Below are positions 3,903-20,000 of a stretch of DNA of 20,000 nt, one piece after another. Source of the DNA: an uncultured virus (IMG/VR IMGVR_UViG_3300033069_001311) (taxonomy: Duplodnaviria > Heunggongvirae > Uroviricota > Caudoviricetes); the IMG/VR virus record IMGVR_UViG_3300033069_001311; one strand, written 5' to 3'. The notes under the pieces are model-generated. The model did not search any database, was not told where the DNA came from, and worked only from the letters and a program-made list of their open reading frames with translations. The translations under genes and the position numbers were made by a program. The stretch's first letter is position 1. Each line of letters opens with the position of its first letter.

Positions 3903-3986
3903 ATGGGATATGCAACCATCGTCATGATCGGAACTATCGTCTTGATTATCGGGACGATCCTGTACGCCAACCGGAAGAACCTGTGA
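3903..3986 (+). CDS. Single-pass membrane micropeptide, 27 aa (MGYATIVMIGTIVLIIGTILYANRKNL)
   Basis: About 20 hydrophobic residues then an RK tail; its TGA overlaps the polymerase GTG. Confidence 0.6.
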   Translation: MGYATIVMIGTIVLIIGTILYANRKNL

Positions 3987-5812: not shown

Positions 5813-5888
5813 ACCCCGAACCGCCGTCGGACGAGCACATCCGGAGGATGGAAGTGTTGATGGCTATGATGACGGTTTCGACGTGCTC

Positions 5889-6140: not shown

Positions 6141-8239
6141 GACTCTTCTCCCTCCCCAACCTTGCCAGTCACGAAGTCTCCGTCATGGACGTGGAGACGG
6201 CTCCCGTCGTCACGCGCCCGGAGTTCGCTTCCAAGACGGAGTACCGAGCTTGGTGCGGGAAGAAAACGACGGACCACGCGTTCGTGTCGATGATCGAGGG
6301 GCTCACCCCCGGGGTTCGGGTTTCGGCCGCCAATCCCCCGCGCAAATTGCACGGGCTCATCTTGGAGTATGACGCCAAGGCGCCCAAGGTCCCCGACCTT
6401 TCCGACGCCCGGTATCTGCCTGCCTGGAAGATCACGACCTTCAGCGGGAACATGCGCCTCGTCTTCCCCTTCGAGTCGCCGATCAGCGTCGACGATGCGG
6501 ATCTAGCTCGCGAGTTCCAGAAGGTGGCGCACAAGAACCTGAAGGCGAAGCGGCTAGGAGCTGGCTGGGAGCCGGAGGAGTCAGCCAAGGCCGGGCAGTA
6601 TTTCGAGATCGGAACTGAGTGGATCCCGCTGGGGGGCGAACCCCTCGCTGTGGAGTCTCTTTACGGCTGGCTTGCCGAGGCCGCGACGAAGGTCCGGTGG
6701 GACAACAAGGGCACCGTCGTACCGTTCGAGAAGCTGCGAGAGCGAGCCGAGAAGGCGTTCCCCGGTCGGTGGGCCGGCGGATGGGCCGGGTTCCAGCCTG
6801 GGGCTCGGGGTTCCCGGTTCTGGGACCAGAGCGCCGATGCGGAGAGCGTGCTGGTGACCGAGACCGGGTGCGTCTGCTTCACCGGCGACCAAGCCTTCAT
6901 GCCGTGGTCCGCCATCTTTGGCTCCGACTGGGTCCGGGAGCAGCAGGGCGGGGTCATCGGCGAGGCCATCGCGAACCTGTGGTGGGAGGAGGGGACCAGC
7001 AAGTACTGGCGCCGGTACGCGAGCGGGGATCTGGGCGCCATGTGTACGATGGCGGACGTCAAGCTCCACCTCCGGGCGCAGGGGCTCAAGGACATCCCGA
7101 CGAAGGGCGAGGAGTTCACCCCCGTCGAGCAGGCGATCTATGCGTGCCAGATCACGCGCCGGGCCGAGGTCGTGGTCCCGCTCATTTACCGCCCCAACGA
7201 CATCGTGATCCATAACCGGAGGCGGTACTTGAATACCTCCCGGGTACGGCCAACGGCGCCCCTGCCCGACCCCCGGTCGTGGGGCGAGGGGTTCCCGTGG
7301 GTGGCGAAGTACCTCGACCGGCTCTGGGACCGGGAGCAGAAGCTTCGGTACCTAGCCTGGGTCGCCCACTTCTACCAGCAGGCCCTCGCCGGGCGCCCGG
7401 GTACCGGATTGGCGCTCTTCGTAGCCGGCGACGGGAGCATTGGTAAGAACTTCTCGACCAACGCTATCCTCGGGCAGCTCTTCGGCGGGCACGGCGACGC
7501 TTCGAAGTTCGTGACGGGCAAAGACAATTTCATCGGGAATCTGCTGGACTGCCCCATCTGGACCTGCCACGACACGCAGCGGGCGGCCGACAACATGAAT
7601 GGGCAGAACACCTTCACCCAGCAGCTCAAGCGGATCATCGCGGACCGGGAGCTGATCGCTCGGGCGATGTATAAGGAAGGCGTGGATGTCCCCTGGAACG
7701 GCCGGATCGTGGTCACCCTGAATACCGACCCCGAGAGTCTAAGGATGCTTCCGGATTTGGAGCAGACGATTCTGAACAAGGTCCTGCTGCTCCGGGCGAA
7801 CGACCCCCGGATCGGAGACTTCCCTTCCGACGAGGAGGTTCTCGCGGAACTCCCGGCCTTCGGGTCATTCCTTCGCGACTACGAGATCCCGGCGGAGATT
7901 CGGGAACCCCGGTTCGGGATTCTGGCTTGGCACCACCCGGACCTGCTCGACGCTGCCCACGCCGAGAGCCCGACGACGGGTGCGCTCGAAGTGCTGTCGA
8001 TCTGGCGGAAGGAGTACTTCAACGGGGTCGCGGCTCCGGATGCGACCTCCTGGATCGGGACGGCGACCGAACTTCTCCAGCTCATGCACCGGCTAGACGC
8101 GACGGAAGCGGTTGTCCGCGGGCAGTTCCGGAATGGCACCAGCCTCGGAAGATCGCTGAATAAGCTTGTCGACCAGAAGGTTTCTTGGATACACAAGCAC
8201 CACGGGGGGCGGAGAACGTACATGTTGGAGCGAGAATAG
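6137..8239 (+). CDS. Primase-helicase: AEP-like N-terminal domain plus DUF5906/SF3-like P-loop NTPase
   Basis: GLILEYD and TTFSGNMRLVF in the N-terminal part; Walker A GDGSIGKN, Walker B-like IWTCHD, sensor VVTLN; winged-helix-like tail WIGTATELL...LGRSL. Confidence 0.82.
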   Translation: MRLFSLPNLASHEVSVMDVETAPVVTRPEFASKTEYRAWCGKKTTDHAFVSMIEGLTPGVRVSAANPPRKLHGLILEYDAKAPKVPDLSDARYLPAWKITTFSGNMRLVFPFESPISVDDADLAREFQKVAHKNLKAKRLGAGWEPEESAKAGQYFEIGTEWIPLGGEPLAVESLYGWLAEAATKVRWDNKGTVVPFEKLRERAEKAFPGRWAGGWAGFQPGARGSRFWDQSADAESVLVTETGCVCFTGDQAFMPWSAIFGSDWVREQQGGVIGEAIANLWWEEGTSKYWRRYASGDLGAMCTMADVKLHLRAQGLKDIPTKGEEFTPVEQAIYACQITRRAEVVVPLIYRPNDIVIHNRRRYLNTSRVRPTAPLPDPRSWGEGFPWVAKYLDRLWDREQKLRYLAWVAHFYQQALAGRPGTGLALFVAGDGSIGKNFSTNAILGQLFGGHGDASKFVTGKDNFIGNLLDCPIWTCHDTQRAADNMNGQNTFTQQLKRIIADRELIARAMYKEGVDVPWNGRIVVTLNTDPESLRMLPDLEQTILNKVLLLRANDPRIGDFPSDEEVLAELPAFGSFLRDYEIPAEIREPRFGILAWHHPDLLDAAHAESPTTGALEVLSIWRKEYFNGVAAPDATSWIGTATELLQLMHRLDATEAVVRGQFRNGTSLGRSLNKLVDQKVSWIHKHHGGRRTYMLERE

Positions 8240-8246
8240 GAAGACC

Positions 8247-8369
8247 ATGAAACTAGCAACCATCGAAACCGTAGTTGAAGTGCGACCCCACCCCAACGCC
8301 GACCGCCTTGAATTGGCGACGGTGCTGGGATGGCAAACCATCATCCGGAAGGGCGAGTTCGCAGCCGGC
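8247..8369 (+). pseudogene. 5' remnant of an RNA ligase (DRB0094-family-like N-terminus)
   Basis: MKLATIETVVEVRPHPNADRLELATVLGWQTIIRKGEFAAG matches the family's N-terminal OB-like segment; the frame then turns into non-protein-like sequence with no ligase motifs. Confidence 0.75.
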
Positions 8370-8371
8370 GG

Positions 8372-8563
8372 TCGTTCGCCGAAGCCGAGGATCTGTACCG
8401 CCAACTGGCGAGCGTGTTCCGAGGAGCGCCGCAGTATGACTGGCCTTGGTGCCCTCCGGCGGTCACGTACGGGCCGCTTCCGCCGCCCGATTGGAGCTAC
8501 CCTCTCCCTCCGCCAACTATCTGCGGCACCGGGAACCCCGTACCTAAATACTACACGTCATGA
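8372..8563 (+). pseudogene. 3' remnant of a Pro-rich phage hypothetical gene
   Basis: RSFAEAEDLYRQLASVF...WPWCPP...YYTS* is protein-like and ends in an ATGA overlap, but has no start of its own downstream of the ligase remnant. Confidence 0.5.
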
Positions 8564-8811
8564 CCCCAGCCGAAATCAGGGAAGCTAAGATCGACGAAAT
8601 CCGGAAATCCGCTGCCCGAAGAGCCGCGATTTGGCGGACGCTGGACGTCGACCCCGCCTCGGAAGTGATTCAAGACGTCGCCAAATGCGACCGGTGCGGT
8701 GAATCCCCGGCACTGCACCTGAGTCAGGACACCCTATGCCCGAGGTGCCAAACCGAAGCCGACGAGTACTGGCGGGAACGGTGGGATGAATACTATTCGA
8801 ATTGCCTATGA
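8560..8811 (+). CDS. Hypothetical Zn-finger protein
   Basis: CDRC...CPRC; ATGA overlaps at both ends. Confidence 0.8.
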   Translation: MTPAEIREAKIDEIRKSAARRAAIWRTLDVDPASEVIQDVAKCDRCGESPALHLSQDTLCPRCQTEADEYWRERWDEYYSNCL

Positions 8812-9818
8812 CCAAAACCCAAGCAGCCGAAGCAATCGTCCGGGAGTTCCCGGGATACCCGTCCAGGACCCTGGCTCGGTTCGTCGTGGATCGAACGCCC
8901 GGGATCTTCCGAGACGTAGAGGACGCCCGGAGGTTTATCCGTGTCCTTCGAGGCAATTATGGCAAGGCGAAGCATGGCGCCCGGAAGGACTTGGTCCGGG
9001 CGCCCGGAGCCCCTTCAGACGGCGTCTACCCGATGCCCGACCCGATCGAAGAGGAGGCGTCGTCGTGGAAGGTTCGGAAGTTCGAGTTCGACGAGTGCCT
9101 CATGCTCTCGGACATTCACGTCCCGTTCCACAACAAGATCGCTCTCGAAGCGACGCTGGCACATGGCGAGTCCCGCAACCCGGATCTGGTCTACCTCAAC
9201 GGCGACATCGTCGACTTCTACTGCACGTCCTTCTTCGACAAGGACCCCCGGCGCCGGTTCCGATTGGCGACCGAGATTGAGTACCTCAAGGCATTCTTGG
9301 AGCATCTCCGGGACCGGTTCCCGAAAGCCCGGATCGTCTACAAGGAGGGGAACCACGAGGAGCGGTTCGCCCGCATGGTGTGGAAGGACTGCCCCGAACT
9401 CGCCAGCGTTCTGACTCCGGGTGGGGCGCCCTGTACCGATCTCCGGCTCATCTTGGGACTCGACGACTTCGGGATCGAGCACATCGGGAACAAGCAGCCG
9501 GCACTCCTCGGCAAACATCTGTACGTGCTGCACGGTCACGAGTTCCGGGCGCCGATGACCAATCCGGTAAACCCGGCCCGGGGACTGTTCCTGCGGACCA
9601 AGACGAACGCAATCTGCGGTGACATGCACCAGACGAGCCACCACTCTGAGGCCGGGATGGAGAACGTCATCTCGTGCTGGTCACTCGGTTGCCTCTGCAA
9701 TCTCCGCCCGCTCTACATGCCGCTCAACAAATGGAACCACGGCTTCGCCGTCGTGGAATCCCACAAGGGCGACTGGAGCGTGGAGAATCACAAAGTCATC
9801 AACGGAAAGGTCGTATGA
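8808..9818 (+). CDS. Calcineurin-like metallophosphoesterase
   Basis: SDIH, NGDIVD, GNHE, HGH, GDMH motifs; start at ATG 8808 (ATGA overlap). Confidence 0.92.
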   Translation: MTKTQAAEAIVREFPGYPSRTLARFVVDRTPGIFRDVEDARRFIRVLRGNYGKAKHGARKDLVRAPGAPSDGVYPMPDPIEEEASSWKVRKFEFDECLMLSDIHVPFHNKIALEATLAHGESRNPDLVYLNGDIVDFYCTSFFDKDPRRRFRLATEIEYLKAFLEHLRDRFPKARIVYKEGNHEERFARMVWKDCPELASVLTPGGAPCTDLRLILGLDDFGIEHIGNKQPALLGKHLYVLHGHEFRAPMTNPVNPARGLFLRTKTNAICGDMHQTSHHSEAGMENVISCWSLGCLCNLRPLYMPLNKWNHGFAVVESHKGDWSVENHKVINGKVV

Positions 9819-9846
9819 AAACCCACTGGAATGGAGGGAATGGCCG

Positions 9847-10074
9847 ATGAACGACCTTTGGTTTTTTCTACAGTCAGTGCTTATGACCGCTGGAGCTGCG
9901 CTTGCGGCTGGTGCCATCCTGCCTCTTGTGATTGTTGGGCTTTGCGCCAGTGGGATGATTCTTGCGGGGATAAGCTGGGTTCTTTTGTTCATCGTCGGCC
10001 TCCCGATGTTCGCCTGGGACTGCCTTGTGAAGTGGTACAAGCGCAGCCGCAGAGACTCTAGCCACTCCACGTGA
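9847..10074 (+). CDS. Small membrane protein, 75 aa
   Basis: GGAGG at 9833-9837; about 50 hydrophobic residues followed by the basic tail KWYKRSRR. Confidence 0.75.
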   Translation: MNDLWFFLQSVLMTAGAALAAGAILPLVIVGLCASGMILAGISWVLLFIVGLPMFAWDCLVKWYKRSRRDSSHST

Positions 10075-10336
10075 TGACCTGCGCCCAGAAGCGGAAACTT
10101 CGCGCCCGACTCTTTGAGAAGCAGCGGAGGAAATGCTTCTACTGCGGGACGGGACTCACCTCGCCCTCACCCACGACATGCCCGGAGAATATGCAACACT
10201 CGACCATATCAAACCCCGATCCCTCGGAGGATCAAACAAGCAGGACAATTTCGTTCTCGCTTGTGAGCCCTGCAACCGAACCAAAGGAAATACCTTTGGA
10301 GACGCCGTCGCCGAACTTTTCCTGCTCCGTTTCTGA
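10071..10336 (+). pseudogene. HNH endonuclease interrupted by a frameshift
   Basis: KQRRKCFYCG in one frame; ATLDHIKPRSLGGSNKQDNFVLACEPCNRTKG in another; CGGGA tandem duplication at 10145-10154. Confidence 0.88.
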
Positions 10337-10505
10337 GCCGGTCTTGCAAGTCCGCTTAGCGGCCGGAAACCTGCGCCGGAAATACGACGAGATTTTGGTT
10401 GAACTCGCCCGGCTCGCGAAGGATAAATGCCCGGAGCCGGACGAGTATCCGGAAGAACTCTGCGGTGTGGCGGAACGAATTCGGTACTACGCAGACAGAC
10501 AATGA
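10296..10505 (+). CDS. Hypothetical protein (start uncertain)
   Basis: TTG preceded by AAGGA; helical C-terminus LRRKYDEILVELARL...; stop overlaps the next ATG. Confidence 0.5.
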   Translation: METPSPNFSCSVSEPVLQVRLAAGNLRRKYDEILVELARLAKDKCPEPDEYPEELCGVAERIRYYADRQ

Positions 10506-10705
10506 GTACAAACCACAGCCCAGTCCATGTCGTCTTAGTGACCCAACTCCGGGACTCTCTGGAGGACCTTCTTGCGACACAGGCTAGCGAATGCGATTCG
10601 GACAGCGAGGGGTATTGCCAAGCCCATTTTCGCGACCACTCAATAGATGGCTGCCGGGTTCGCAAAGCGAAAGACGTACTGTTCGACTTCGACTCCTGCC
10701 TATGA
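10502..10705 (+). CDS. Hypothetical protein, 67 aa
   Basis: ATGA overlaps at both ends; C...CQAH...C possible metal site. Confidence 0.75.
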   Translation: MSTNHSPVHVVLVTQLRDSLEDLLATQASECDSDSEGYCQAHFRDHSIDGCRVRKAKDVLFDFDSCL

Positions 10706-11163
10706 GCGCCACCCTAATCGCCATCGACCCCGGAATGTCCGGAGGCGTCGCCTGGATTCGTGAAGGGCAAGCTGCGGCCTGCAAGATGCCGCCGGAGGAC
10801 GAACTCAACGACCTGTTCTACACGCTCGGTCCGATCCGGGCGGTCTACATCGAGCTGGTGCCTTGGGTCCTCGGCATGAAAATCTCGCCGGCATCGGTGG
10901 GCAAGCTGCACTACCAACGGGGTCTGTGCGAGGGTCTGGTCGTGGGGCGCGGGATTCGGTTGGTGCGAACCGAGCCCAAGGTCTGGCAGTCGAAATTTCA
11001 CCTCGGAACGCGGAAGGACGCAGGGGGCTACAGTCAATGGAAAAGGAAGTTGAAGACGGAAGCGGCGCGGAGATTCCCGGATCTGGATGTGACGTTGAAC
11101 ACGGCGGATGCGCTCCTGATTCTGGAGTACGCCCGCGGGGTCGAGGTTGGCGCCGCAATCTAG
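10702..11163 (+). CDS. RuvC-like Holliday junction resolvase
   Basis: IAIDPGMSGGVA, VYIE, PKVWQ, TADALLI: RNase H-fold acidic motifs. Confidence 0.88.
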   Translation: MSATLIAIDPGMSGGVAWIREGQAAACKMPPEDELNDLFYTLGPIRAVYIELVPWVLGMKISPASVGKLHYQRGLCEGLVVGRGIRLVRTEPKVWQSKFHLGTRKDAGGYSQWKRKLKTEAARRFPDLDVTLNTADALLILEYARGVEVGAAI

Positions 11164-11207
11164 GGAGTACGCCTGCGAAGGCGGCCAAGGACCCGGGCCG
11201 GATTCGG

Positions 11208-11426
11208 ATGTCGGCGGCCCGAGCCCTGCGGGAGCAACTGATCCCGGTCCGGACTCAGCGGGAAGTGGCGGAGATCATGTCGCGGACCGAGGGCCGAAGA
11301 GTTTCAAAGTCGAATGTCGAATTGTGGGAGATGGCGGCACTGGACAAAGTCATCAGGCTTATGAAGAAATCGGAGCTTGAAGTTTGCAAGGCGCGGGAGA
11401 AAGCTTTGGGGGAAAGGCTGCAATGA
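11208..11426 (+). CDS. Stand-alone sigma-70 region-4-like HTH protein (start uncertain)
   Basis: RTQREVAEIM...VSKSNVELWEMAALDKV resembles the region 4.2 pattern T-x-x-EV...V-S/T...V-x-x-x-E-x-x-AL-x-K. Confidence 0.65.
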   Translation: MSAARALREQLIPVRTQREVAEIMSRTEGRRVSKSNVELWEMAALDKVIRLMKKSELEVCKAREKALGERLQ

Positions 11427-11719
11427 AAACTGAACTGATCAACCGTGTAGGGCTGGGAATTGTTGTTGTCGTGGGCCTCTTTGTCGGTATCGCGCTTATG
11501 TCCAAATCCCGGACTGCTAGGGGCTCGGTCACAGCGGGTCTCATGTCCCAAGTCGCCCGGGATTCATACACAACAGGCTTCATGATTGGGTGGAAGGTCC
11601 GGGATCTTGGAGGAACCTACGACGTGGCGTTCCGTTTGGCGTCCGGATACCCGACGAATGTCGCCGAGGTTCAGGCGTGGTTCGCCGGTAAGGATACGAG
11701 CCTCACTTTCCCGGAGTGA
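11423..11719 (+). CDS. Membrane-anchored hypothetical protein
   Basis: N-terminal TM VGLGIVVVVGLFVGIALM; coupled overlaps. Confidence 0.75.
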   Translation: MKTELINRVGLGIVVVVGLFVGIALMSKSRTARGSVTAGLMSQVARDSYTTGFMIGWKVRDLGGTYDVAFRLASGYPTNVAEVQAWFAGKDTSLTFPE

Positions 11720-11913
11720 CTATGCCGAAAATCACCATAGAGTTCGCGCACTCCATCGGAGACCGGGTGCTTGTCAAAGAAATCCAGCGACCGGGCATAG
11801 TCAAGGCGCTCACGGTCGACTACCTCGGGCCCCAGTACTCCGTCCATTTCTGGAACGACGGCAACCGGCGCATCGAATGGTTGACGGAATCTGAAGTGGA
11901 GGCGAGGCCATGA
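11716..11913 (+). CDS. Small SH3/KOW-like beta-barrel hypothetical protein
   Basis: IGDRVLVK...GIV...YSVHF...WLTESEVE pattern. Confidence 0.75.
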   Translation: MTMPKITIEFAHSIGDRVLVKEIQRPGIVKALTVDYLGPQYSVHFWNDGNRRIEWLTESEVEARP

Positions 11914-12053
11914 ACGCCGCATCTCTCTGGGGAATCCTCGCGTGGATGTGGTGCCGGTGGGCGCACCGAAACGTGCATCGCGTCATTGAACACCGAGACG
12001 TCGTCATCAAAGAATGCCCCCGATGCCGGTGGCAGTTTGCGGAAGAGCCATGA
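11910..12053 (+). CDS. Hypothetical protein, 47 aa, C-x3-H...CxxC
   Basis: Read by hand: MNAASLWGILAWMWCRWAHRNVHRVIEHRDVVIKECPRCRWQFAEEP; ATGA overlaps at both ends. Confidence 0.7.
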   Translation: MNAASLWGILAWMWCRWAHRNVHRVIEHRDVVIKECPRCRWQFAEEP

Positions 12054-12349
12054 ACATCGAAGTCCCCATCTCACTCACCCAACTGGAATGCGGGCTCGTC
12101 TTCCGGGGCGACAACTCCTTCGAGACGCTCGTGGACGTCGATCGGGAAACGGTACTCCGAGCCATTGAACCGCGGGGCGATGATTTCTCTATTCTCGACT
12201 CGGACCTGCTTCCGGTCACGGGCCGTCGCTACTACTGGAGCCAGCTCGCCGAATCCTGTGGCGATTCCGTGAATCAAGTCTTGACTGCTTGGACAGGAAA
12301 GACGATATACGGAACGTGCGTCGTATTGCCTACTGACACTGAACTATGA
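12050..12349 (+). CDS. Hypothetical protein (weakly DUF3846-like C-terminus)
   Basis: ATGA overlaps; VNQVLTAWTGKTIYGTCVVL tail. Confidence 0.7.
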   Translation: MNIEVPISLTQLECGLVFRGDNSFETLVDVDRETVLRAIEPRGDDFSILDSDLLPVTGRRYYWSQLAESCGDSVNQVLTAWTGKTIYGTCVVLPTDTEL

Positions 12350-12705
12350 AACTCGAACTTGACTCTTCGGAACTAGGCGCCGTTATCGGCGCTCTGGTAA
12401 CGGCCAAATACTACTCCCGGCTCCGGCCGGAGTCGGTTGACGAAATCGCGAGCGTAGCGGACCCGATCTTGAAGAAATGCTTCGACTTGCTCACTCCCGA
12501 AGAGAGGGTGCTTACGAAGGCGTACACTCTAGGTCCCCAACAGGGGTGGCGCAAGTTCTTTTGCCACGAGTGCAATTCGGAATGGCGCGACTACACCAGC
12601 CCGAGCGGGTCTAATTGCCCCCGGTGCGGCGAATGGGAGTTTCCCGTCGCCGGGGACGCAGATCCAAACATCCCTGTCGACGCTTTTGGAAACCTGATCA
12701 AATGA
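12346..12705 (+). CDS. Hypothetical Zn-ribbon protein
   Basis: FFCHECN...CPRCG; ATGA overlaps. Confidence 0.8.
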   Translation: MKLELDSSELGAVIGALVTAKYYSRLRPESVDEIASVADPILKKCFDLLTPEERVLTKAYTLGPQQGWRKFFCHECNSEWRDYTSPSGSNCPRCGEWEFPVAGDADPNIPVDAFGNLIK

Positions 12706-13769
12706 CAACCACCATCGAAATCCCCGAAGGGGTCTTCCTCGACCCGTACCTGAAGGCCAACCGAGACTCCGGTACGATCTTCCGGCTTCAGGCCGGCAAC
12801 TACTACACCCGCGGCTGTTTCGACTTCCCGGAGCACGATCTCTGCATGCTTGCCCCCGGGTGTAGCATCGTCGGAGAAACCGGAGAGTCCATCATCATGC
12901 TGGACGACGCCGTCTTGGAGCACGACGGCAAGCCCACGGGGTACACCGAAGTCCTGACCGCGGGAGCGCGGACGAAGGGTTCGTCTGTCTCCGTCGTAGT
13001 CAGCGGAGTCGTGATCAAATGCTCACACTACCCCACCGTCCCGACCGTGGGACTTCACGTGTGGTCTTCCCAGGCGATGGTCAGCAATGTTATGGTGGTC
13101 GATCTCTTCGGAGACCGAGACGCCACGACGCCGGTCCGGGAAGGGTTCGGGATTCTGGTGAATCCGGGGGCTTACTCGCTCGGGCCCGACGGCGGGAACT
13201 TCGTCAAAGGGTGCCGGGTCGATCTGCTCAAGACCGCCAAGGAAAACTACTGCACGGCGATCTTCATCGGAGGTTCGAAGCGGGAAGGCGTCCCTCTGCT
13301 CCGGTCGCACATTCGAGTCTGCCAGACGATCGCTTCCGACGGGCACGCCGCATTCGCCATGAACGATCGGACCTCGATCTCCGACTGCGAGGCCGTCGGG
13401 TTCCGACGAGCGGTCTTCGTTGATACCGGCCCGGTTCGGGATTGCCGGATCGAGCGACTGGATGCCGGAGACTGTGGCTGGGCTCTCGATCTGCGCGGGA
13501 CGTCGGAACGCCGCGGGATTCTGGTGAAGGATTCGTCCTTCAGCTTCCGGGCGATCGACGGATGGGCGCAGGCGATCCTGCTCTCGGACGACGATTCGGG
13601 GGCATACGTCGACGGCGTCGCGATCGACGGCTGTACGTTCATCGCCCCGAGCGACAGGGGGCGAGCCTCGAAGGCTCGACTGCGCGGGAAGAACGTCGAA
13701 CCGTTTACCGAGCGGAACAACACGTGGGTCGGGAACTGGGAACTTCCGGTCATCCAGAAAACCGTATGA
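12702..13769 (+). CDS. Right-handed parallel beta-helix (pectin-lyase-like) protein, 355 aa
   Basis: IFRLQAGNY and SIVGETGESII cap motifs; repeating strands VSNVMV, VKGCRV, ISDCEA, VKDSSF, IDGCTF. Confidence 0.75.
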   Translation: MTTTIEIPEGVFLDPYLKANRDSGTIFRLQAGNYYTRGCFDFPEHDLCMLAPGCSIVGETGESIIMLDDAVLEHDGKPTGYTEVLTAGARTKGSSVSVVVSGVVIKCSHYPTVPTVGLHVWSSQAMVSNVMVVDLFGDRDATTPVREGFGILVNPGAYSLGPDGGNFVKGCRVDLLKTAKENYCTAIFIGGSKREGVPLLRSHIRVCQTIASDGHAAFAMNDRTSISDCEAVGFRRAVFVDTGPVRDCRIERLDAGDCGWALDLRGTSERRGILVKDSSFSFRAIDGWAQAILLSDDDSGAYVDGVAIDGCTFIAPSDRGRASKARLRGKNVEPFTERNNTWVGNWELPVIQKTV

Positions 13770-13954
13770 GACCCGAACTCGTAGCCGCCTGCCGGGAGCT
13801 GGAGATCCCGTCCCGGAATCTGGAATCCATCTTGGTGCCCCTACTTAGCGGGGGCCGGGGACTGGAGACCAACCTTCGGGAGGCGGAGATCCGGCTCAAG
13901 ATTTGCATTGTCAACCTGCAAGCAGCTATGAAGAGAGCGGAGGAATTGCTATGA
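13766..13954 (+). CDS. Hypothetical helical protein, 62 aa
   Basis: ATGA overlaps at both ends. Confidence 0.7.
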   Translation: MRPELVAACRELEIPSRNLESILVPLLSGGRGLETNLREAEIRLKICIVNLQAAMKRAEELL

Positions 13955-14358
13955 TACAGAGGATAGGGACAGTCTACGAAACCCCGGACGGGCGAGAGTT
14001 CGCCGACCGAGTCGAAGCGGCTACTCACGAACTATTCGAGGACCTCGAAGCGTGGAAGAAAGACGAAGGCCGAGATGAGATCAGCCCGTTCTTTTTCGCT
14101 CAGTGCCTCCGCGATCTCAGGGAAGGCGACGACGTTTCGCGATTCTGTGATCCATGTGCCCAAAGCCAGCTCATCAAAGCCTGCAATCTGCTTGGTGAGG
14201 TGCTGCGAAAAGATCGTGAGGCCATCGCAAGAATGAAGTCTGAGGCGCCGTGGTATCAGGTTCCGGATGAGTTGGCGGATCTTCACCGCAGGATAGCGCG
14301 GACGATTGGTGAAGAGTCGCCGAACGCCACGCCGTCAGCCACGGAGGGCGGGCGATGA
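13951..14358 (+). CDS. Hypothetical protein
   Basis: GGAGG upstream; YETPDGREF...EAATHE motif common in phage early proteins. Confidence 0.8.
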   Translation: MIQRIGTVYETPDGREFADRVEAATHELFEDLEAWKKDEGRDEISPFFFAQCLRDLREGDDVSRFCDPCAQSQLIKACNLLGEVLRKDREAIARMKSEAPWYQVPDELADLHRRIARTIGEESPNATPSATEGGR

Positions 14359-14786
14359 GCCTGATCAACTGCAAGGCGTGTGGAGAGACCCACAATCAGG
14401 ACCGGACGTGTGCGCGGCCTCCGTTAGCTGGACGCTCTGGATCGGAGGGCTGCGCTTGGACGGACCTGCGAGCTTACTGGGCCGAGTGTGAGAAATTGGA
14501 TAAAGACTACCGAACGGACGAAGAGCGCGTGTTGCTTGGTGAGATGTTCACCCGGTACGAAGCCCTCAAAAAACTGGGATGGCAGGATATCATTTACTGC
14601 CCGAAGGACGGTTCCGAGTTTTTGAGCATCAGTGCGGGCAGCCCTGGCGTCCATCGCTGCCATTACGACGGCGAATGGCCGAAGGGATTCTGGTGGATTT
14701 CCGAAGCGGGGGACATGCGGCCGGCTCACCCGATACTCTGGAAGCCGATGATGCGGTTCCTCAACAACGCAGGAGACATCTCGTGA
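14355..14786 (+). CDS. Hypothetical protein with a DUF551-like C-terminal domain
   Basis: WQDIIYCPKDGSEFL...HPILWKP; N-terminal CKAC...H...C. Confidence 0.75.
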   Translation: MSLINCKACGETHNQDRTCARPPLAGRSGSEGCAWTDLRAYWAECEKLDKDYRTDEERVLLGEMFTRYEALKKLGWQDIIYCPKDGSEFLSISAGSPGVHRCHYDGEWPKGFWWISEAGDMRPAHPILWKPMMRFLNNAGDIS

Positions 14787-14956
14787 GCGCCCGGCGACCC
14801 CACCCACGACTTGACGCCCTCGACCGGCTTGCCCTTGTGGGTCCGGACGACGGAGAGCAGGAGATCCTTTCGATCCTGATCGACTTCCTCGTCGGGATCG
14901 AAGAGGCAACCGTAGCCCGAGCCGTTCTGGCGGCCCGAGAAAGGACTGACGCGTGA
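14783..14956 (+). CDS. Hypothetical protein, 57 aa
   Basis: GTGA overlap; amphipathic helices. Confidence 0.7.
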   Translation: MSARRPHPRLDALDRLALVGPDDGEQEILSILIDFLVGIEEATVARAVLAARERTDA

Positions 14957-15152
14957 GCAAGATTACGTTGAAATCGAACACGACTCAGGATTCGCAGGGT
15001 TCGAAGTGGCGAAGATTGTCGCTCTTATGTCGCAGGACAACGTCCTCCAAGTACTGACGGATGTGGACATTGTGACCATCCCCTTCCGCAACGCGAAGTC
15101 CGCGGCGGAGGCGTTCGACAAAATCTCCAAGGCGAAGGAGGCGGTAGCGTGA
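14953..15152 (+). CDS. Hypothetical protein with a frameshifted or non-canonical start
   Basis: Protein-like frame DYVEIEHDSGFAGFEVAKIVALM...AFDKISKAKEAVA* ends in a GTGA overlap; the coupled GTG at 14953 is one base out of frame. Confidence 0.55.
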
Positions 15153-15418
15153 AAACGTTCCTCGATCGGGTGTTCGATGGGTTAGCTGCATGGGAGAAAG
15201 TTGCGTCTTCGGAGGAGAAAGAAAACGCAGTGCAGCACACAGGTCTGGTTGCGATCCCCGTCCATTTTGTCATCCTGTTTTGGTGGGGCGCCGCGTACCT
15301 CAATTTCGTCCCCCACGCTTGGTGGTCGCTCCCACTCGGGCTCACCGCGATAGTCGCGCACAGCGCTCTAGCCCTCGTCAGCCTCCCCTTCATCCACTAC
15401 TTCCTGATCAAGAAATGA
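15149..15418 (+). CDS. Membrane protein with two predicted TM helices
   Basis: Two hydrophobic stretches, KK C-terminus; AGGAGG upstream. Confidence 0.8.
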   Translation: MKTFLDRVFDGLAAWEKVASSEEKENAVQHTGLVAIPVHFVILFWWGAAYLNFVPHAWWSLPLGLTAIVAHSALALVSLPFIHYFLIKK

Positions 15419-15918
15419 CCACACCCCTCATCCTCGGCCTCATCGGGCGCAAGAGGTCCGGAAAGGACACCCTATTCCGGATCGTCAAATCTCGATACCC
15501 GAACGCGGAACGGGTTGCCATCGCGGATCCGCTCAAGGAAGACATCGCCCGGCGATTCGACTCCACGGTCCAGGCGATCAAGGAGAACAAGGAATTCTGG
15601 CGCCCGGTTCTCCAGTGGTGGGGGCACGTCCACCGGGAGATGTGGACGGCGAAGGCGTTCCTGCGAATCGAGAATTCGCCCTCGAATCTGGTCGTGGTGA
15701 CCGATGCCCGGTACCCGGAGCAGTTCGACCTCATCCGGCGCCGGAATGGGCTCCTGGTCCGGGTTCTGCGCGAGGAGCACGGTTCGGCCGATATGCACCC
15801 GTCGGAGGACAACGTCACGACGGCGGGCGCGGATCTCTTCGTCTGGAATCCCGGAGATGCGACGTTCGTCGACGGGCTCGGGGAGTTGTGGAAGGCGATT
15901 GAGGGGAGGCTGTCATGA
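15415..15918 (+). CDS. Deoxynucleoside monophosphate kinase
   Basis: P-loop GRKRSGKDT, ADPLKE, RPVLQWWG, VVTDARYPEQ, HPSE. Confidence 0.9.
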   Translation: MTTPLILGLIGRKRSGKDTLFRIVKSRYPNAERVAIADPLKEDIARRFDSTVQAIKENKEFWRPVLQWWGHVHREMWTAKAFLRIENSPSNLVVVTDARYPEQFDLIRRRNGLLVRVLREEHGSADMHPSEDNVTTAGADLFVWNPGDATFVDGLGELWKAIEGRLS

Positions 15919-16124
15919 GTCGTTCGGATCTCCTGCGACGGATGGCGACCATGAAAGTCGACGACCGACCCCCGAAGGGCGGGTGGGCTCTCGGGCCGTA
16001 CTTGAACACCTGTCTCCGATGCCGACAGGACTTCCTTGGCGACAAGAGGGCGTCCCATTGCGCGGACTGTGCGTACGAACCGGAACGGGAACCTCTGACA
16101 GACATCAATGGGTGCGACGTATGA
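15915..16124 (+). CDS. Hypothetical Zn-finger protein
   Basis: CLRC...FLGDKRA...CADCA; ATGA overlaps. Confidence 0.8.
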   Translation: MSRSDLLRRMATMKVDDRPPKGGWALGPYLNTCLRCRQDFLGDKRASHCADCAYEPEREPLTDINGCDV

Positions 16125-16432
16125 GCCCCCTCCGCCTCCTTAAGCTCTGGTCCTCCGCCATGCGCCGGGAAGGTAAATCCGTCGTCCGGTGGGCCATCCC
16201 GCTCCTGATTCAGGGGATCAGGGCCCGGCCATTCGTCTCAGGTGCCCGGTGGCGGAGCCGGATGCGGGCTTGCGGTCGCTGTCCGGTCTATGACCGAGTG
16301 ACGCGCCAGTGTCGGGATGGGGAGCTGGGCTGCGGGTGCAGCTGCCCGGTCAAGTTCCTCTTCGAGGGCGAGACGTGCTGGGCGAGGGAGCAGGGGATCT
16401 ATGGACTCGGGTGGCCGGAGAATGTGAAATGA
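16121..16432 (+). CDS. Cys-rich hypothetical protein (DUF6171-like pattern)
   Basis: R-x3-CGRCP...C...CGC...K...C...W. Confidence 0.75.
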   Translation: MSPLRLLKLWSSAMRREGKSVVRWAIPLLIQGIRARPFVSGARWRSRMRACGRCPVYDRVTRQCRDGELGCGCSCPVKFLFEGETCWAREQGIYGLGWPENVK

Positions 16433-16617
16433 ACTACGAGAATTGTCTAACCCGTCTCGGGCTGGCACAGGTCAGCGGCGGGACCAAAACGCTGGCGTTG
16501 AGCATCCTTTATCTGCTCCGCGAGGAGTCCGAAAACCTCTACTGGGACACCGAAGAAGACGCCATCGAAATCGAAGTTGCGGATGGAACAGTCGTAGTGA
16601 CGGGGAAGAAGCCATGA
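16429..16617 (+). CDS. Hypothetical protein, 62 aa
   Basis: ATGA overlaps at both ends. Confidence 0.7.
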   Translation: MNYENCLTRLGLAQVSGGTKTLALSILYLLREESENLYWDTEEDAIEIEVADGTVVVTGKKP

Positions 16618-16862
16618 AAATCGTGAAACTCAGCGGGGGTTCGGTATCGGAGCAGCATTTCGTCATGAACGACCAAGGAAGAGGGGTGCGGCTCCCGCTT
16701 CCCCGCGAGATCGTCGAAAGGTATGGAATACTGCTCCGGGCGGCCCACTCACCGGAGGGGTATCCTCAGTTGGACACGTTGCTCGAAATCCCGGAAGCTC
16801 TCGCGCCCGAGGCGCCGGTCTTGAGGCGTGGATACGACGCCGGAAAGCTCGTGCTGAAATGA
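16614..16862 (+). CDS. Hypothetical protein, 82 aa
   Basis: ATGA overlaps at both ends. Confidence 0.7.
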   Translation: MKIVKLSGGSVSEQHFVMNDQGRGVRLPLPREIVERYGILLRAAHSPEGYPQLDTLLEIPEALAPEAPVLRRGYDAGKLVLK

Positions 16863-17059
16863 AAATTCTCGATGCAATCAAGGTCGGGCTCAAGCTCCGG
16901 CTCATCTGTTGGGTGCTCCGGCGCCGGCAGTGGAAGCTGTCGCAGGCGTACAACCGGGTGGCGGCAAATTTACTGCTCAGTGAAAATCACGAGCTGGGTG
17001 AAAAGATCCGAGAATTGGGCGACCGGCAGTGGGAGAAGGTATATGAGGATTTCGTGTGA
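16859..17059 (+). CDS. Hypothetical protein, 66 aa
   Basis: Coupled overlaps at both ends. Confidence 0.7.
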   Translation: MKILDAIKVGLKLRLICWVLRRRQWKLSQAYNRVAANLLLSENHELGEKIRELGDRQWEKVYEDFV

Positions 17060-17361
17060 CCTCCCTCCCTCGCACTCTCGACGCCGCCGAGAAGCAGGAA
17101 GTCCTGCGGTACTTCCACGGACCCTTCGGGCTCCGGCTTCTGGAATCTCTGCTGGACATGCGGGCGGAGTTTGTGGTGCAGTCGGTCGCCCGAGATATTG
17201 CGGACCCGGCGGTGACGGAGGACAGGGTACTAGGCGCAGTGCGCCCGGTACGGGTTGAAATGGAACGGATCGAATATGCCAAGGAATTCCTCAGAACAGT
17301 CTACGCAGCCAGTTTTCAAGATGGGTCTCCCCGACCCGACTCCGGTTCCCCGGTCCGGTGA
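17056..17361 (+). CDS. Hypothetical helical protein, 101 aa
   Basis: GTGA overlap, GAGG upstream. Confidence 0.75.
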   Translation: MTSLPRTLDAAEKQEVLRYFHGPFGLRLLESLLDMRAEFVVQSVARDIADPAVTEDRVLGAVRPVRVEMERIEYAKEFLRTVYAASFQDGSPRPDSGSPVR

Positions 17362-17584
17362 CGTCGTCCGGGATCTGTGCGAGATCGCGGTCGCCAACGT
17401 CCGGCGCCTGGATCAGATCGCCGAGGCGATGGAGAAGGGGCTGGAGGGGATGTCGTCGAGCGAGCTGTCCCGGATCGTGCGGACGATCATTGTCGCCCGG
17501 ACGAACGCGGTGAAGCTGGCGACCAAAGCCGTCGGGGACTTGGTCGGGCCGTTGCGAGCCAAGAACAAGGCGAAGGATGTATGA
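17321..17584 (+). CDS. Hypothetical helical protein (start could be 17276)
   Basis: Amphipathic helices; stop overlaps the next ATG. Confidence 0.7.
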   Translation: MGLPDPTPVPRSGDVVRDLCEIAVANVRRLDQIAEAMEKGLEGMSSSELSRIVRTIIVARTNAVKLATKAVGDLVGPLRAKNKAKDV

Positions 17585-17862
17585 GCAGCCCGTCTATGTT
17601 GACGAATAGCCTAGGTTTGGTTGACGCTAATCGACACATGGGACGAGATATGACCGGCGTCGAGGATAGCCTCTCCGAATACTGTGAGGCATCCTGCGAA
17701 TACCAGATCCGCAGCGACCTGAAGTTCGCCTTCCATGAGCGATGGGCCGAATCCGTCGAACGAAAGTGGCGCTACCTGCCCGGCGCATTCGAGTCGACAT
17801 GGTTCGACTACGTCCTCAATGATCTGGAGTGCCAGTACTGGCGGATTTTAAGTTCTACCTGA
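17581..17862 (+). CDS. Hypothetical protein, 93 aa
   Basis: ATGA overlap, AAGGA upstream. Confidence 0.7.
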   Translation: MSSPSMLTNSLGLVDANRHMGRDMTGVEDSLSEYCEASCEYQIRSDLKFAFHERWAESVERKWRYLPGAFESTWFDYVLNDLECQYWRILSST

Positions 17863-17984
17863 CAGGCACCGGGCGCCGGGAATTGGATCTTCCAGCAACG
17901 CCCGGGGCGGTCAGGATCGGAGCAGGATGGTTGGCTCGCACCTGCGATAAATGCGAGCCGCTCTTTTCCCCTCAGAAAACGTGA
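17829..17984 (+). CDS. Possible hypothetical protein, 51 aa (MPVLADFKFYLTG...CDKC...QKT)
   Basis: Read by hand; fills the gap and its TGA overlaps the methyltransferase GTG. Confidence 0.45.
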   Translation: MPVLADFKFYLTGTGRRELDLPATPGAVRIGAGWLARTCDKCEPLFSPQKT

Positions 17985-19126
17985 ATTACTACAACGAGTT
18001 CGACCCAAAAGCAGCGGCGTGGCTTCGCGAACTTATCGCCCGGGGGCACATCCCGGAGGGGTTTGTCGACACCAGAAGCATCGCCGAAGTATCACCAAAA
18101 GACTTGCATGACTATGAGCAGTGCCACTTCTTCGCCGGAATCGGGGGTTGGCCCCTCGCCCTCCAGCTCGCCGGATGGGATAGACCCGTCTGGACCGGGA
18201 GCTGCCCTTGCCAGCCATTCTCCATCGCCGGGGCCGGGAGAGGCACCGCCGACGAGCGCCACCTCTGGCCCCAGTTCGCCCGACTCATCGCCAAGTGCCA
18301 GCCTCCAGTCGTCTTTGGCGAGCAGGTTGCGAGCAAGGCTGGGCGAGAGTGGCTCGCTGGAGTACGCGCTGACCTGGAAGGAATGGCCTATGCTGTCGGG
18401 GCCGCCGATCTGTGCGCTGCGGGCGTCGGCGCACCGCACATCCGGCAACGACTCTTCTGGGCGGCCGACACCTACAGTCCGGGACTGGAAGGACGGAGAC
18501 TCCCAGAGTTGCGCGAACGTGCCGGCGAACGGGCTGCTAGGGCGGGTGGCGACGTTGGCGGGGTGGAGGTCGCCGATGGCAGCGGACGGCAAGGACATGT
18601 CCTGCTCGTCCCAAGTCTCCCTCCAAGACCAAGCAAGGCTGGCGGGGTGGGTATCGCCGACAGCGCAGGACGGGACTCGGGGGAGCCTGCCGCCAAGGGA
18701 TCACGACACCGGAGTTCCTCTGAGCCAACAGGCGGCGCTCGTAGGGTGGAATACGCCCCGGGCGACGGACGGATCGAACGGGGGTCCGAATCAGGCGGGC
18801 GGAGCCCTTCCGGCGGACGCGAGCCTCGCGGGGTGGAGGAGTCCGGACCACAACTCCAGGGGAGGGGCCTACGCGGACCCGGAGAAGGCGCTAGCGAGGC
18901 TGACGAGCGGCCACCAGATCAATCTGGAGGATCAAGCGGTGCTAGCTTCTGGTCCAACTACGAACTCATCCCCTGCCGGGACGGCAAAGTCCGGCGCATT
19001 GAACCCGGAACATTCCCGCTGGCTCATGGGGTACCCGGCCGAGTGGGGCTCCTGCGGGGCTACGGCAATGCAATCGTGCCGCAAGTCGCGGCGGAATTTG
19101 TGATGGCGGTGAAAGAACTACTATGA
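17981..19126 (+). CDS. DNA (cytosine-5) methyltransferase, large (alpha-like) chain
   Basis: Motif I FFAGIGG, IV GSCPCQPFS, VI-like GEQV, VIII PHIRQRLF, X YGNAIVPQVA; no motif IX in this frame; low-complexity middle. Start at GTG 17981. Confidence 0.92.
   Translation: MNYYNEFDPKAAAWLRELIARGHIPEGFVDTRSIAEVSPKDLHDYEQCHFFAGIGGWPLALQLAGWDRPVWTGSCPCQPFSIAGAGRGTADERHLWPQFARLIAKCQPPVVFGEQVASKAGREWLAGVRADLEGMAYAVGAADLCAAGVGAPHIRQRLFWAADTYSPGLEGRRLPELRERAGERAARAGGDVGGVEVADGSGRQGHVLLVPSLPPRPSKAGGVGIADSAGRDSGEPAAKGSRHRSSSEPTGGARRVEYAPGDGRIERGSESGGRSPSGGREPRGVEESGPQLQGRGLRGPGEGASEADERPPDQSGGSSGASFWSNYELIPCRDGKVRRIEPGTFPLAHGVPGRVGLLRGYGNAIVPQVAAEFVMAVKELL
18108..19103 (+). CDS. Overprinted +1-frame methyltransferase small (beta-like) chain with tandem repeats and motif IX; start uncertain (18108, 18114 or 18390)
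   Basis: Stop-free for over 1 kb; five L-A-G-W-x-S/T-P-x-x-x-D-like units; LNPEHSRWLMGYPAEW resembles motif IX. Confidence 0.75.
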   Translation: MTMSSATSSPESGVGPSPSSSPDGIDPSGPGAALASHSPSPGPGEAPPTSATSGPSSPDSSPSASLQSSLASRLRARLGESGSLEYALTWKEWPMLSGPPICALRASAHRTSGNDSSGRPTPTVRDWKDGDSQSCANVPANGLLGRVATLAGWRSPMAADGKDMSCSSQVSLQDQARLAGWVSPTAQDGTRGSLPPRDHDTGVPLSQQAALVGWNTPRATDGSNGGPNQAGGALPADASLAGWRSPDHNSRGGAYADPEKALARLTSGHQINLEDQAVLASGPTTNSSPAGTAKSGALNPEHSRWLMGYPAEWGSCGATAMQSCRKSRRNL

Positions 19127-19407
19127 AACTCAAATACCTACTGGCTCTGGCGCTCTGCGCCGGAGGTTGCACATCCTACCGCGTGACCCAGGCGGATACG
19201 TCGGCCTCTGGTCGCAAAATCACGTTTGACGTCCGGGCGAACGCTTGGTTCTCGTCGGCGCAGAGCATCTCGGATCTGGCTGCTGAGCAGACGGATAAGA
19301 AGCAGGTCTTCGGCACCAAAGGGATCTCCCAAGCCGGTCCGACGAATACCGTCGCGACGTTGGAGGCCCTAGCGAAGGTCCTGAGCGCACTGAGGCCGAC
19401 GCCATGA
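19123..19407 (+). CDS. Putative lipoprotein
   Basis: MKLKYLLALALCAGG-C: basic n-region, hydrophobic core, lipobox-like Cys; ATGA overlap. Confidence 0.8.
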   Translation: MKLKYLLALALCAGGCTSYRVTQADTSASGRKITFDVRANAWFSSAQSISDLAAEQTDKKQVFGTKGISQAGPTNTVATLEALAKVLSALRPTP

Positions 19408-19475
19408 GCGGCACGACTGCGGGGACGGGGCGCTCTTGGTATGAGTAGAGCTTACGCCCCCAGTACCAAAACTCA

Positions 19476-19503
19476 TGTCACTACGCATAACTGCGTAGTG
19501 TCA
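19476..19503. repeat. Palindrome 1: TGtCACTACGCA-TAAC-TGCGTAGTGTCA
   Basis: 12-bp arms with one mismatch, 4-bp centre. Confidence 0.95.
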
Positions 19504-19518
19504 TAAAATTGGCTTCTC

Positions 19519-19531
19519 CATCAACGACTTA
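19519..19531 (+). promoter_or_regulatory. IHF-like binding site between palindromes 1 and 2
   Basis: cATCAACGACTTA versus consensus WATCAANNNNTTR (one mismatch). Confidence 0.55.
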
Positions 19532-19550
19532 ACTTTTGGTCGGACGCTTG

Positions 19551-19578
19551 TGACACTACGCAGTACTGCGTAGTGTCA
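19551..19578. repeat. Palindrome 2: TGACACTACGCA-GTAC-TGCGTAGTGTCA (perfect 28-bp palindrome)
   Basis: Read directly. Confidence 0.97.
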
Positions 19579-19672
19579 AAGTCGGAAGTACGAGCGCCCC
19601 AACGAGATACGTCCGTTTCGAGGTCGGAAACCGGCTAGTTTCGCCACTTCGGCCCGAAACTCCTGTGGGGAC

Positions 19673-19718
19673 GAATTCCCCGCCCGGAGGGGAATTCCTC
19701 TTCTCTTTTTTCTTTTTT
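19673..19718 (+). terminator. Rho-independent terminator-like hairpin
   Basis: GAATTCCCC-gcccgga-GGGGAATTC followed by CTCTTCTCTTTTTTCTTTTTT. Confidence 0.65.
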
Positions 19719-19761
19719 CCATAACAATTACCAACCACCTAATTAGGGAAAAGTGCGATTG

Positions 19762-19774
19762 CAACTTGTTGATT
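19762..19774 (-). promoter_or_regulatory. IHF-like binding site
   Basis: CAACTTGTTGATT; reverse complement AATCAACAAGTTG matches WATCAANNNNTTR exactly. Confidence 0.6.
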
Positions 19775-19791
19775 TCCAGCGGTTTGACTCA

Positions 19792-19819
19792 TGACACTAC
19801 GCACCACTGCGTAGTGTCA
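19792..19819. repeat. Palindrome 3: TGACACTACGCA-CCAC-TGCGTAGTGTCA
   Basis: Read directly. Confidence 0.97.
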
Positions 19820-19838
19820 CAAGCGTCCGGGAAAAAGT

Positions 19839-19851
19839 TAAGTCGTTGATG
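19839..19851 (-). promoter_or_regulatory. IHF-like binding site between palindromes 3 and 4
   Basis: TAAGTCGTTGATG, the inverted copy of 19519-19531. Confidence 0.55.
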
Positions 19852-19866
19852 GAGAAGCCAATTTTG

Positions 19867-19894
19867 TGACACTACGCAGTTATGCGTAGTGTCA
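19867..19894. repeat. Palindrome 4: TGACACTACGCA-GTTA-TGCGTAGTGTCA
   Basis: Read directly. Confidence 0.97.
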
Positions 19895-20000
19895 TAATTT
19901 CGGGAAAGTGTCGTTCAGACGAGTATATGCGAGATCGACTTTCCAGTTTTGCCACTAAGCGGAATCACTATGCCTCCGAGCTGGTTTCGAAAATCCGGAA

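Follow-up and report, generated by a model that had tools for sequence, protein, structure and literature searches.

What a highly symmetric, non-coding element does at the end of a phage replication operon is the question raised by one stretch of DNA from an uncultured virus of the Caudoviricetes (IMG/VR record IMGVR_UViG_3300033069_001311). The window, meaning the whole 20,000-nucleotide stretch that was analysed, is the early/replication module of this phage, and near its end lies an element of four 28-bp palindromes (P1 to P4; Table 1) arranged as two pairs within a large inverted repeat. An earlier, sequence-only reading had described a looped platform of sites for a dimeric protein, bent by integration host factor (IHF), and had offered a replication origin, a packaging or terminus site, a recombination or telomere-resolution site and an invertible switch as candidate functions. 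We conclude that the array is real and non-random and, with moderate confidence, that it is most likely regulatory. Our confidence is likewise middling that the element is a paired-operator array for one symmetric (dimeric or tetrameric), sequence-specific phage regulator at an operon boundary, the regulator probably being encoded by the phage in a gene outside the window.

Each palindrome has the form TGACACTACGCA-N4-TGCGTAGTGTCA, which is 28 bp composed of two 12-bp half-sites and a free 4-bp centre (12-4-12). The four centres are TAAC, GTAC, CCAC and GTTA. Within each pair, the palindromes are 75 bp apart from centre to centre and are separated by a 47-bp linker; this spacing corresponds to about seven helical turns, so both sites lie on roughly the same face of the DNA. 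All of these features had been described before and were recovered here. Allowing up to two mismatches, the 20 kb contains eight half-sites, seven exact and one with a single mismatch (at 19478), as previously counted. The expectation is 0.76, the maximum among shuffled sequences was 4, and none of 200 shuffles reached 8. All eight half-sites are inside the element, and the other 19.4 kb is free of copies. The 8-base core CACTANGC is similarly confined, with 10 of its 10 window matches inside the element, two of them being extra direct copies at 19953 and 19966. In control loci, an exact palindrome with 9-mer arms recurred in 1 of 83 other loci from unrelated phages (2 copies) and in 2 of 80 loci of polymerase relatives (2 copies each). 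Conservation of half-sites around free centres is classically associated with a protein dimer that touches both halves of its site.

The two pairs form the arms of an inverted repeat of 109 nt that is 92% complementary, with 213 nt between the arms. This is slightly longer than the 104-bp arms first described, over which 97 of 104 positions are indeed identical. The centres of P1 and P4 (TAAC/GTTA) are reverse complements of each other, while those of P2 and P3 do not match. P1 and P3 share short flanks in direct orientation, as do P2 and P4, although the linkers are inverted; such an arrangement can arise because two copies of a palindrome form a direct repeat and equally an inverted one, between which recombination can flip the linker. 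The element falls within a tract (19408-20000) with an overall guanine-plus-cytosine (GC) content of 0.50 and codon-position values of 0.52/0.47/0.50, compared with a window mean of 0.61. This tract is the only flat-frame stretch and the only sustained run below 50% GC in the window, other candidate gaps showing frame bias, in agreement with its description as the only long non-coding, AT-richer tract, at the end of the operon.

To determine whether the structure is shared between assemblies, we used four public runs (X1-X4), which are present as contigs, a form in which termini and rare orientations are not visible. Exact contigs in X1 and X2 cover 19052-19534 and 19535-19813, including the whole core between the arms. 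X4, a sludge metagenome from a different study, has exact contigs covering 19445-19595 and 19852 to beyond 20000. Contigs break at the 31-mers common to both arms, which is what an inverted repeat should produce. With the core spanned by exact contigs in two runs, X1 and X2, and the left arm matched exactly in X4, a single faulty assembly does not account for the structure. None of the four runs showed a joint or an alternative orientation over 19475-19895, with the reservation that minor forms may be lost from contigs.

This last result bears on an invertible or recombining switch, in which a recombinase would exchange strands at the P1 and P4 centres and flip the 391-bp segment that carries a predicted terminator, thereby gating read-through. 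Serine-recombinase crossover sites offer a geometric parallel: res site I has the form 12-4-12 and hix/gix sites 12-2-12. The palindromes equal a resolvase site I in their 28 bp and come near invertase sites, P1 and P4 are inverted with matching centres, the terminator in the core is one-directional, and the lineage is temperate, with a tyrosine integrase in one relative. The 28-bp QacR IR1 operator, which binds two dimers, shares the site length as well; for these systems the likeness is one of length and of half-site and spacer geometry, and likeness of sequence is not claimed. However, the match between P1 and P4 is trivial, the arms being inverted copies, and the P2 and P3 centres do not match. 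The contigs of X1 and X2 read the core in the orientation of the window. Additionally, no recombinase was found in the upstream 19.4 kb (1-19407), as the sequence-only reading had already stated, and neither a recombinase nor a TetR-family gene was seen to complete the likeness to serine-recombinase sites or QacR. An invertible switch is thus not favoured, and we regard it as very unlikely. The other recombination candidate, a telomere-resolution site (protelomerase tel), was rejected: the centre of symmetry falls within the non-palindromic 213-bp core, contigs read straight through, and the window contains no protelomerase.

The sequence-only reading had overlooked that the core contains a predicted terminator and that the right arm is part of a repeated 191-bp cassette (copy A). 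A second copy (copy B) is found on X3 record 24 (1104 nt), which matches 19784-19974 only, with 9 differences, and whose flanks are both unlike the window. Eight of the changes relative to the right arm fall in the 47-bp linker and one in the leader, with 0 of 56 in the palindromes. The leader is therefore the best-conserved non-palindromic part of the cassette; it includes TATGCGAGATCG (19926-19937) and, at 19953 and 19966, two half-site-like motifs in direct orientation (CACTAnGC). Run X2 has loose ends at 19784 and 19974, the same break points as in the X3 contig. The unitig 19855-19974, which is common to both contexts, has a depth of 81.2 in X1 (neighbours 42.4 and 34.1) and of 53.3 in X2 (neighbours 41.5 and 24.1). 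The context of copy B is thus present in the same read sets at similar depth, and it lacks the core and the second arm. An in-frame 43-amino-acid reference from the open frame at the window end, where the two copies diverge, gave no match among proteins of 77-2000 amino acids, which is weak evidence for a non-coding leader.

A repeat of this kind could also be selfish, the cassette or the arms being a small non-autonomous element inserted at several phage loci with no phage function here. The similarity between copies A and B ends sharply at 19784 and 19974, and within each copy the 9-11 nt beyond the two boundaries are alike while differing between copies, resembling a target-site duplication. 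This flank evidence, however, consists of 30-nt loose ends only. The cassette has no terminal inverted repeats, the 431-bp element shows no flanking duplication by eye, and the other copy is missing the second arm and the core. Neither the strict nor the relaxed palindrome pattern had a match in 2.9 million viral contigs, and the metagenome and genome collections yielded three isolated matches, two of them in unrelated DNA of 38% GC. A mobile repeat is therefore highly improbable. The more specific idea that the whole 431-bp element is a miniature inverted-repeat transposable element was rejected on the missing duplication at 19470/19900 and on the single-armed other copy.

The third of these isolated matches, L082, is a 1673-nt metagenome contig homologous to the cassette and the only relative among them. 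Its palindrome is identical to ours at 26 of 28 bases, with a single change that is mirrored on both halves and a fifth centre sequence. The aligned region is 63% identical overall, the flanks are homologous, and TATGCGAGATCG is found equally far from the palindrome in both; for the two further half-site-like motifs that close the cassette at its 3' edge, the alignment with L082 is better when they are inverted. The palindrome of L082 is followed by a leader of about 330 nt with no coding signal, two small open reading frames (ORFs) and a methyltransferase 77% identical in protein sequence to that of the window, all reading away from the palindrome. By eye, GAAACCGG/TTTCG motifs like those of the hairpins in the core recur in this leader. 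L082 stops 26 bp past its palindrome, which leaves the size of its array uncountable. Counterparts of its two small ORFs were absent from the window and from five whole records of distant relatives (G001-G005).

That the sites are kept, fully in copy B and at 26 of 28 bases in L082, while their surroundings diverge argues for selection on the sites rather than on everything. The conserved half-sites, the free centres and the mirrored change in L082 together support the general proposal, made from the sequence, of a multi-site platform for a dimeric protein. Recurrence of the cassette without the core, in a second context, fits a regulator that acts at several transcription units. Additionally, the cassette lies upstream of a leader and operon in L082, and after a terminator and before a leader in the window, which points to control of transcription units; its position upstream of the L082 operon is suggestive of an operator role.

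Of the half-site searches proposed earlier, the one within the window found nothing elsewhere in the 20 kb, and the search of collections gave L082 as the one related contig. The remaining two matches (L081 and L083) carry a single palindrome core (ACACTACGCA-N4-TGCGTAGTGT) in intergenic DNA, the same stretch occurring in a Lachnospiraceae genome and a metagenome contig; they were set aside as relatives, being probably chance or the site of another regulator. We examined 80 methyltransferase loci, which were not syntenic, a few sharing only a phosphoesterase and none having a four-fold array. Single-protein scans with the 94-amino-acid ORF, the polymerase (PolA) and the deoxynucleoside monophosphate (dNMP) kinase found no relative. 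A PolA alignment scan gave 80 loci at no more than 40% identity, from which the five whole records were compared. A literature search on 10-mers of the motif surfaced only primers and an unrelated paper on the F-plasmid oriT.

One of the five records has a palindrome system of its own. In G005 (the IMG/VR record behind L110; 76.4 kb, 39.5% GC), the palindrome TTAACAACT-n-AGTTGTTAA is present at 15-17 sites between about 38100 and 45850. It occupies nearly every gap between consecutive small plus-strand early genes, just past the stop codon and 40-55 bp before the next ATG, with overlapping tandem copies in two gaps. Dispersed palindromes that appear to be control motifs thus occur in this phage group, which for the present element is no more than an analogy.

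At this locus the element lies between the last operon gene with its terminator and a non-coding leader. Terminator prediction in the core gave six overlapping terminator-like calls, all on the plus strand, compared with 0.9 expected, and the hairpin has a fold energy of -20.6 kcal/mol. The early operon transcript is likely to end at this hairpin, within the core, which places P1 and P2 in the 3' untranslated end of the early transcript.

The palindromes could accordingly act in RNA, forming 12-bp hairpins for mRNA stability or processing, or pairing arm to arm as a duplex of about 100 bp that is a target of RNase III; sib retroregulation in lambda is a precedent for the latter. P1 and P2 belong to the early transcript, ahead of the terminator, the hairpin of a perfect palindrome does not depend on which strand is transcribed, and the palindromes of G005 lie between cistrons. 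Predicted folding is strong, both for RNA of 19408-19730 (z -6.7) and for the whole element as a single strand (z -19.6). However, every copy has the same stem sequence, that of L082 is nearly the same, and covariation is absent, while the loops vary freely. Loops are what RNA-binding proteins usually recognise, and a stem that serves only by pairing could have any sequence. A search of Rfam matched no family, the three sub-threshold hits being microRNA-like (best 26.5 bits against a gathering score of 75). We consider an RNA-level role quite improbable.

What the sequences establish for an operator array is the sites and their symmetry, their retention amid diverged surroundings, the terminator-like hairpin, the recurring cassette and its place upstream of an operon in a relative; protein binding, looping and an effect on transcription are what we infer. 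Two 28-bp palindromes, spaced by 75 bp and facing roughly the same side of the helix, would make up the working unit. One pair together with the leader of about 80 bp would make up the 191-bp cassette heading a transcription unit, reused at no fewer than one second locus, and the second, inverted pair would be located upstream of the early operon terminator at this locus. Protein bound to both pairs could bridge them over about 240-390 bp, looping out the terminator and the AT-rich spacer, and the loop would set transcription leaving the early operon or starting into the downstream genes. A bolder extension, which we think doubtful, holds that the 191-bp unit is a portable regulatory cassette that moves between phage loci and wires downstream genes to one phage regulator, that the pair or the linker can flip, and that the opposed pairs bracket the early terminator as a protein-bridged gate on read-through.

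Several observations weigh against an operator array. Arm against arm, the linkers differ at 4 of 47 positions and the palindromes at 1 of 48; given this conservation of the linkers, a recent duplication alone could explain the likeness of the arms, and the comparison is uninformative on selection for the sites. Neither the unassigned ORFs of the window nor the two small ORFs of L082 have a DNA-binding domain, and the two sets share no homologue, so that the binder is hypothetical; about 56 kb of the phage lies beyond the window. The left pair, being inside the 3' end of the early transcript and before the terminator, is in an unusual position for an operator. No sigma-70-like promoter was found in 19300-20000 at a threshold of at least 9 of 12 matches (0.4 expected), although the promoter type of the host may differ; TTGACT stands immediately before P3 with no -10 element following, and apart from it (at 19784) nothing convincing was found by eye. 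Lastly, a recurring palindrome is absent from four of the five distant relatives with complete or near-complete records. Of the two earlier concerns, an artefact and a lack of similar architecture in relatives, the contigs that bridge the core speak against the first.

The remaining part of the core is an AT-rich spacer with one IHF-like site. The lowest GC of any 150 bp in the window is 0.41, at 19701-19850, and much of this AT-richness comes from the T-run of the terminator. The window has a single exact IHF consensus, WATCAANNNNTTR, on the minus strand (19762-19774, as reported earlier). It is expected 0.11 times and was seen at least once in 19 of 200 shuffles, roughly a one-in-ten chance of occurring somewhere in the window. 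The 12-base core of the IHF site has three matches, all in the element; the two in the linkers are copies of each other, and in copy B a substitution (19849 A>G) disrupts the linker motif. For that reason the IHF reading is weak. Of the IHF-bent platform proposed from the sequence, the motifs in core and linkers stand, while the linker matches do not count separately and are not kept in copy B; the IHF sites are weakly supported.

Comparable layouts, with repeated protein sites beside an AT-rich stretch, an IHF-type site and replication genes in the vicinity, are found in the origins of lambda and the staphylococcal pathogenicity islands (SaPI), P4 ori/crr, lambda cosB and P1 pac. As a replication origin, the element would have an initiator, either the DUF5906-type primase-helicase or an unseen protein, bind the pairs and melt the AT-rich spacer with the help of an IHF-type bend. 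The two sets of sites flank the lowest-GC stretch of the window, a likeness of structure only, as iterons in lambda ori and SaPI ori lie beside or flank an AT-rich region. The sole exact IHF consensus of the 20 kb is within that stretch, and the element is at the end of the replication module. Nevertheless, it is 11 kb from the primase-helicase gene, neither in nor beside an initiator gene, and its AT-richness is owed largely to the T-run. One pair recurs elsewhere as a core-less cassette and precedes an operon in L082, and the conserved 80-nt leader suggests a function in expression. GC skew has no switch inside the window, which covers one side of the element only. An origin is unlikely, although it deserves some weight.

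Similarly, a cos- or pac-like packaging site would have a small terminase bind the sites on both sides and the large subunit cut in or near the core, again with an IHF-type bend. In P1 pac, repeated hexamers flank the cut region and IHF is used, and an IHF-type bend is known in lambda cosB as well. Here, too, sites flank a central region with IHF-like motifs at a module boundary. However, no terminase gene is visible in the window, a non-coding leader comes next, and contigs bridge the core, though contigs cannot show termini. The cassette recurs elsewhere and precedes the methyltransferase operon in L082. The relative G004 carries its structural genes on the other strand, a long way from where its replication module ends. 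Packaging is thus highly unlikely. For both of these earlier candidates, the placement of sites beside an AT-rich region stood, whereas the recurrence of the core-less cassette and the operon position in L082 weakened the case.

As an operator array, the element functions most like the looping multi-operator systems, namely lambda OL/OR, the flanking sites of 186 CI, OR/OL/OD of TP901-1 CI and the GalR-HU repressosome. It shares with them a repeated dyad-symmetric site, helically phased pairs, two groups of sites a few hundred bp apart, a possible site for an architectural protein between the partners, a place at the boundary of a transcription unit and a temperate lineage. In contrast to those systems, its sites are 28 bp (12-4-12) rather than the 14-21 bp typical of operators, the window has no adjacent repressor gene, divergent promoters or recognisable promoter, one group of sites lies before a terminator inside a transcript, and the groups are near-exact inverted copies including their linkers. 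It thus departs from known operator arrays in how long its sites are, in having opposed pairs on the two sides of a terminator and in lacking an adjacent regulator gene in the window.

Two further systems have related layouts. PeSLs are composite promoter-terminator cassettes of T4-type phages (PMC2839356; PMC4122927). Like the PeSLs, the present unit is an intergenic repeated cassette, here with a GGGG...CCCC terminator, an AT-rich stretch and then the repeated unit; it stands beside different genes in relatives (the methyltransferase operon in L082), and it is a plausible recombination point for module shuffling. The strong sigma-70-like promoter that defines PeSLs was tested for and not found here at 9 or more of 12 matches, and membership was rejected on this ground. 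Moreover, PeSLs are not known to have long sequence-specific palindromes, and they number dozens in T4-type phages, compared with 2-3 known copies here; our terminator stands 60 bp ahead of the cassette and is not included in what copy B shares. The stoperators of cluster A mycobacteriophages are short asymmetric sites bound by a monomer at many places, their orientation tied to transcription (PMC9283540). The element resembles them in having repressor-type sites away from a main promoter and in transcription units, and a block to elongation by bound protein, as at stoperators, would suit the left pair, whereas its sites are symmetric, 28 bp long, paired and few.

Table 1. Features of the element and its surroundings (positions are those of the window)
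Feature	Position	Strand	Basis
Palindrome P1	19476-19503		
Palindrome P2	19551-19578		
Palindrome P3	19792-19819		
Palindrome P4	19867-19894		
Left arm: P1, linker 19504-19550, P2; inverted copy of right arm	19470-19578	.	
Right arm: P3, linker, P4	19792-19900	.	
First part of core: two small GTTTCG/CGAAAC-type hairpins	19579-19663	+	RNA folds -4.8 and -8.2 kcal/mol
Intrinsic-terminator-like hairpins (GGGG...CCCC type), then long T-run	19664-19722	+	terminator prediction, fold
AT-richest spacer with single exact IHF consensus	19723-19783	.	
Repeated cassette, copy A: TTGACT (19784-19789), P3, 47-bp linker, P4, conserved leader of about 80 nt	19784-19974	+	
Leader continuation to window end, non-coding; copies A and B diverge here	19975-20000	+	flat codon-position GC; L082 equivalent non-coding
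94-amino-acid ORF, last gene of long plus-strand early/replication operon	19123-19407	+	ORF list, translation
DUF5906-type primase-helicase	6137-8239		

Upstream of the element is a 19-kb operon, and every confident gene of the window is on the plus strand. The gene order is helicase, DUF2800 nuclease, family A polymerase (PolA), DUF5906 primase-helicase, phosphoesterase, RuvC-like resolvase, dNMP kinase, C5 methyltransferase and then the 94-amino-acid ORF. The latter carries a lipoprotein-like signal (MKLKYLLALALCAGGC...; signal and lipobox judged by eye), family searches with it gave no match, and its product may be a surface-exclusion or spanin-like protein. The polymerase protein itself is on record from contigs of up to 76 kb. 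To any named phage its identity is only about 25% over most of its length (at most about 28%), and at the DNA level named phages match the window in the methyltransferase alone. Relatives of the polymerase at 86%, 71% and 66% identity are known from metagenome assemblies only, the first of them on a 38.6-kb contig (P0002). Those on viral contigs reach 40% at best and keep the helicase-nuclease-polymerase-primase order, and part of the relatives at 40-45% reside on bacterial chromosomes. The complete relative G004 (70.8 kb) has a tyrosine integrase directly upstream of its helicase-nuclease-PolA-primase module (L170:5709-6884). The integrase in G004 and the polymerase relatives on bacterial chromosomes indicate that distant relatives are temperate. 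Between integrase and helicase, G004 has two small opposite-strand ORFs, which may be an immunity region. The first position of our window falls inside the helicase gene, and the window may start just past an equivalent integrase and immunity region.

Further observations concern individual genes of the module. Four small cysteine-pair (zinc-ribbon-like) proteins are encoded at 8560-8811, 12346-12705, 14355-14786 and 15915-16124, two of them with weak Pfam zinc-ribbon matches; they are candidates for the binder of the palindromes. Small zinc-finger activators drive late genes in some phages, as Ogr does in P2. The frame at 10071-10505 has an HNH-endonuclease-like N-terminus (a basic stretch, then CxxC) and a remainder that by eye looks out of frame, and it may be a frameshifted or degenerate HNH gene. 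A 346-amino-acid ORF lies in another frame entirely within the C5 methyltransferase gene (17951-19126 and 18063-19103). Towards the 3' end of this gene (about 18964-19127), summed depth in the runs is very high and variants are numerous, from which it follows that this conserved part is common to many other organisms in the samples. In three runs of one study, contigs omit 108 bases of the gene within 18836-18945, which suggests a length variant of its glycine/arginine-rich middle region in co-occurring relatives.

An operator function, if borne out, would give a handle on regulation in an uncultured phage lineage of about 76 kb with temperate distant relatives, and the 28-mer would be directly usable as bait for the regulator. 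Opposed pairs on either side of a terminator are an uncommon arrangement, which could serve as a loop-controlled insulator. Proof of an origin or a switch instead would give the lineage its first functional landmark. Recurrence of the cassette, in turn, illustrates how a phage could bring unrelated gene blocks under one control and shuffle them.

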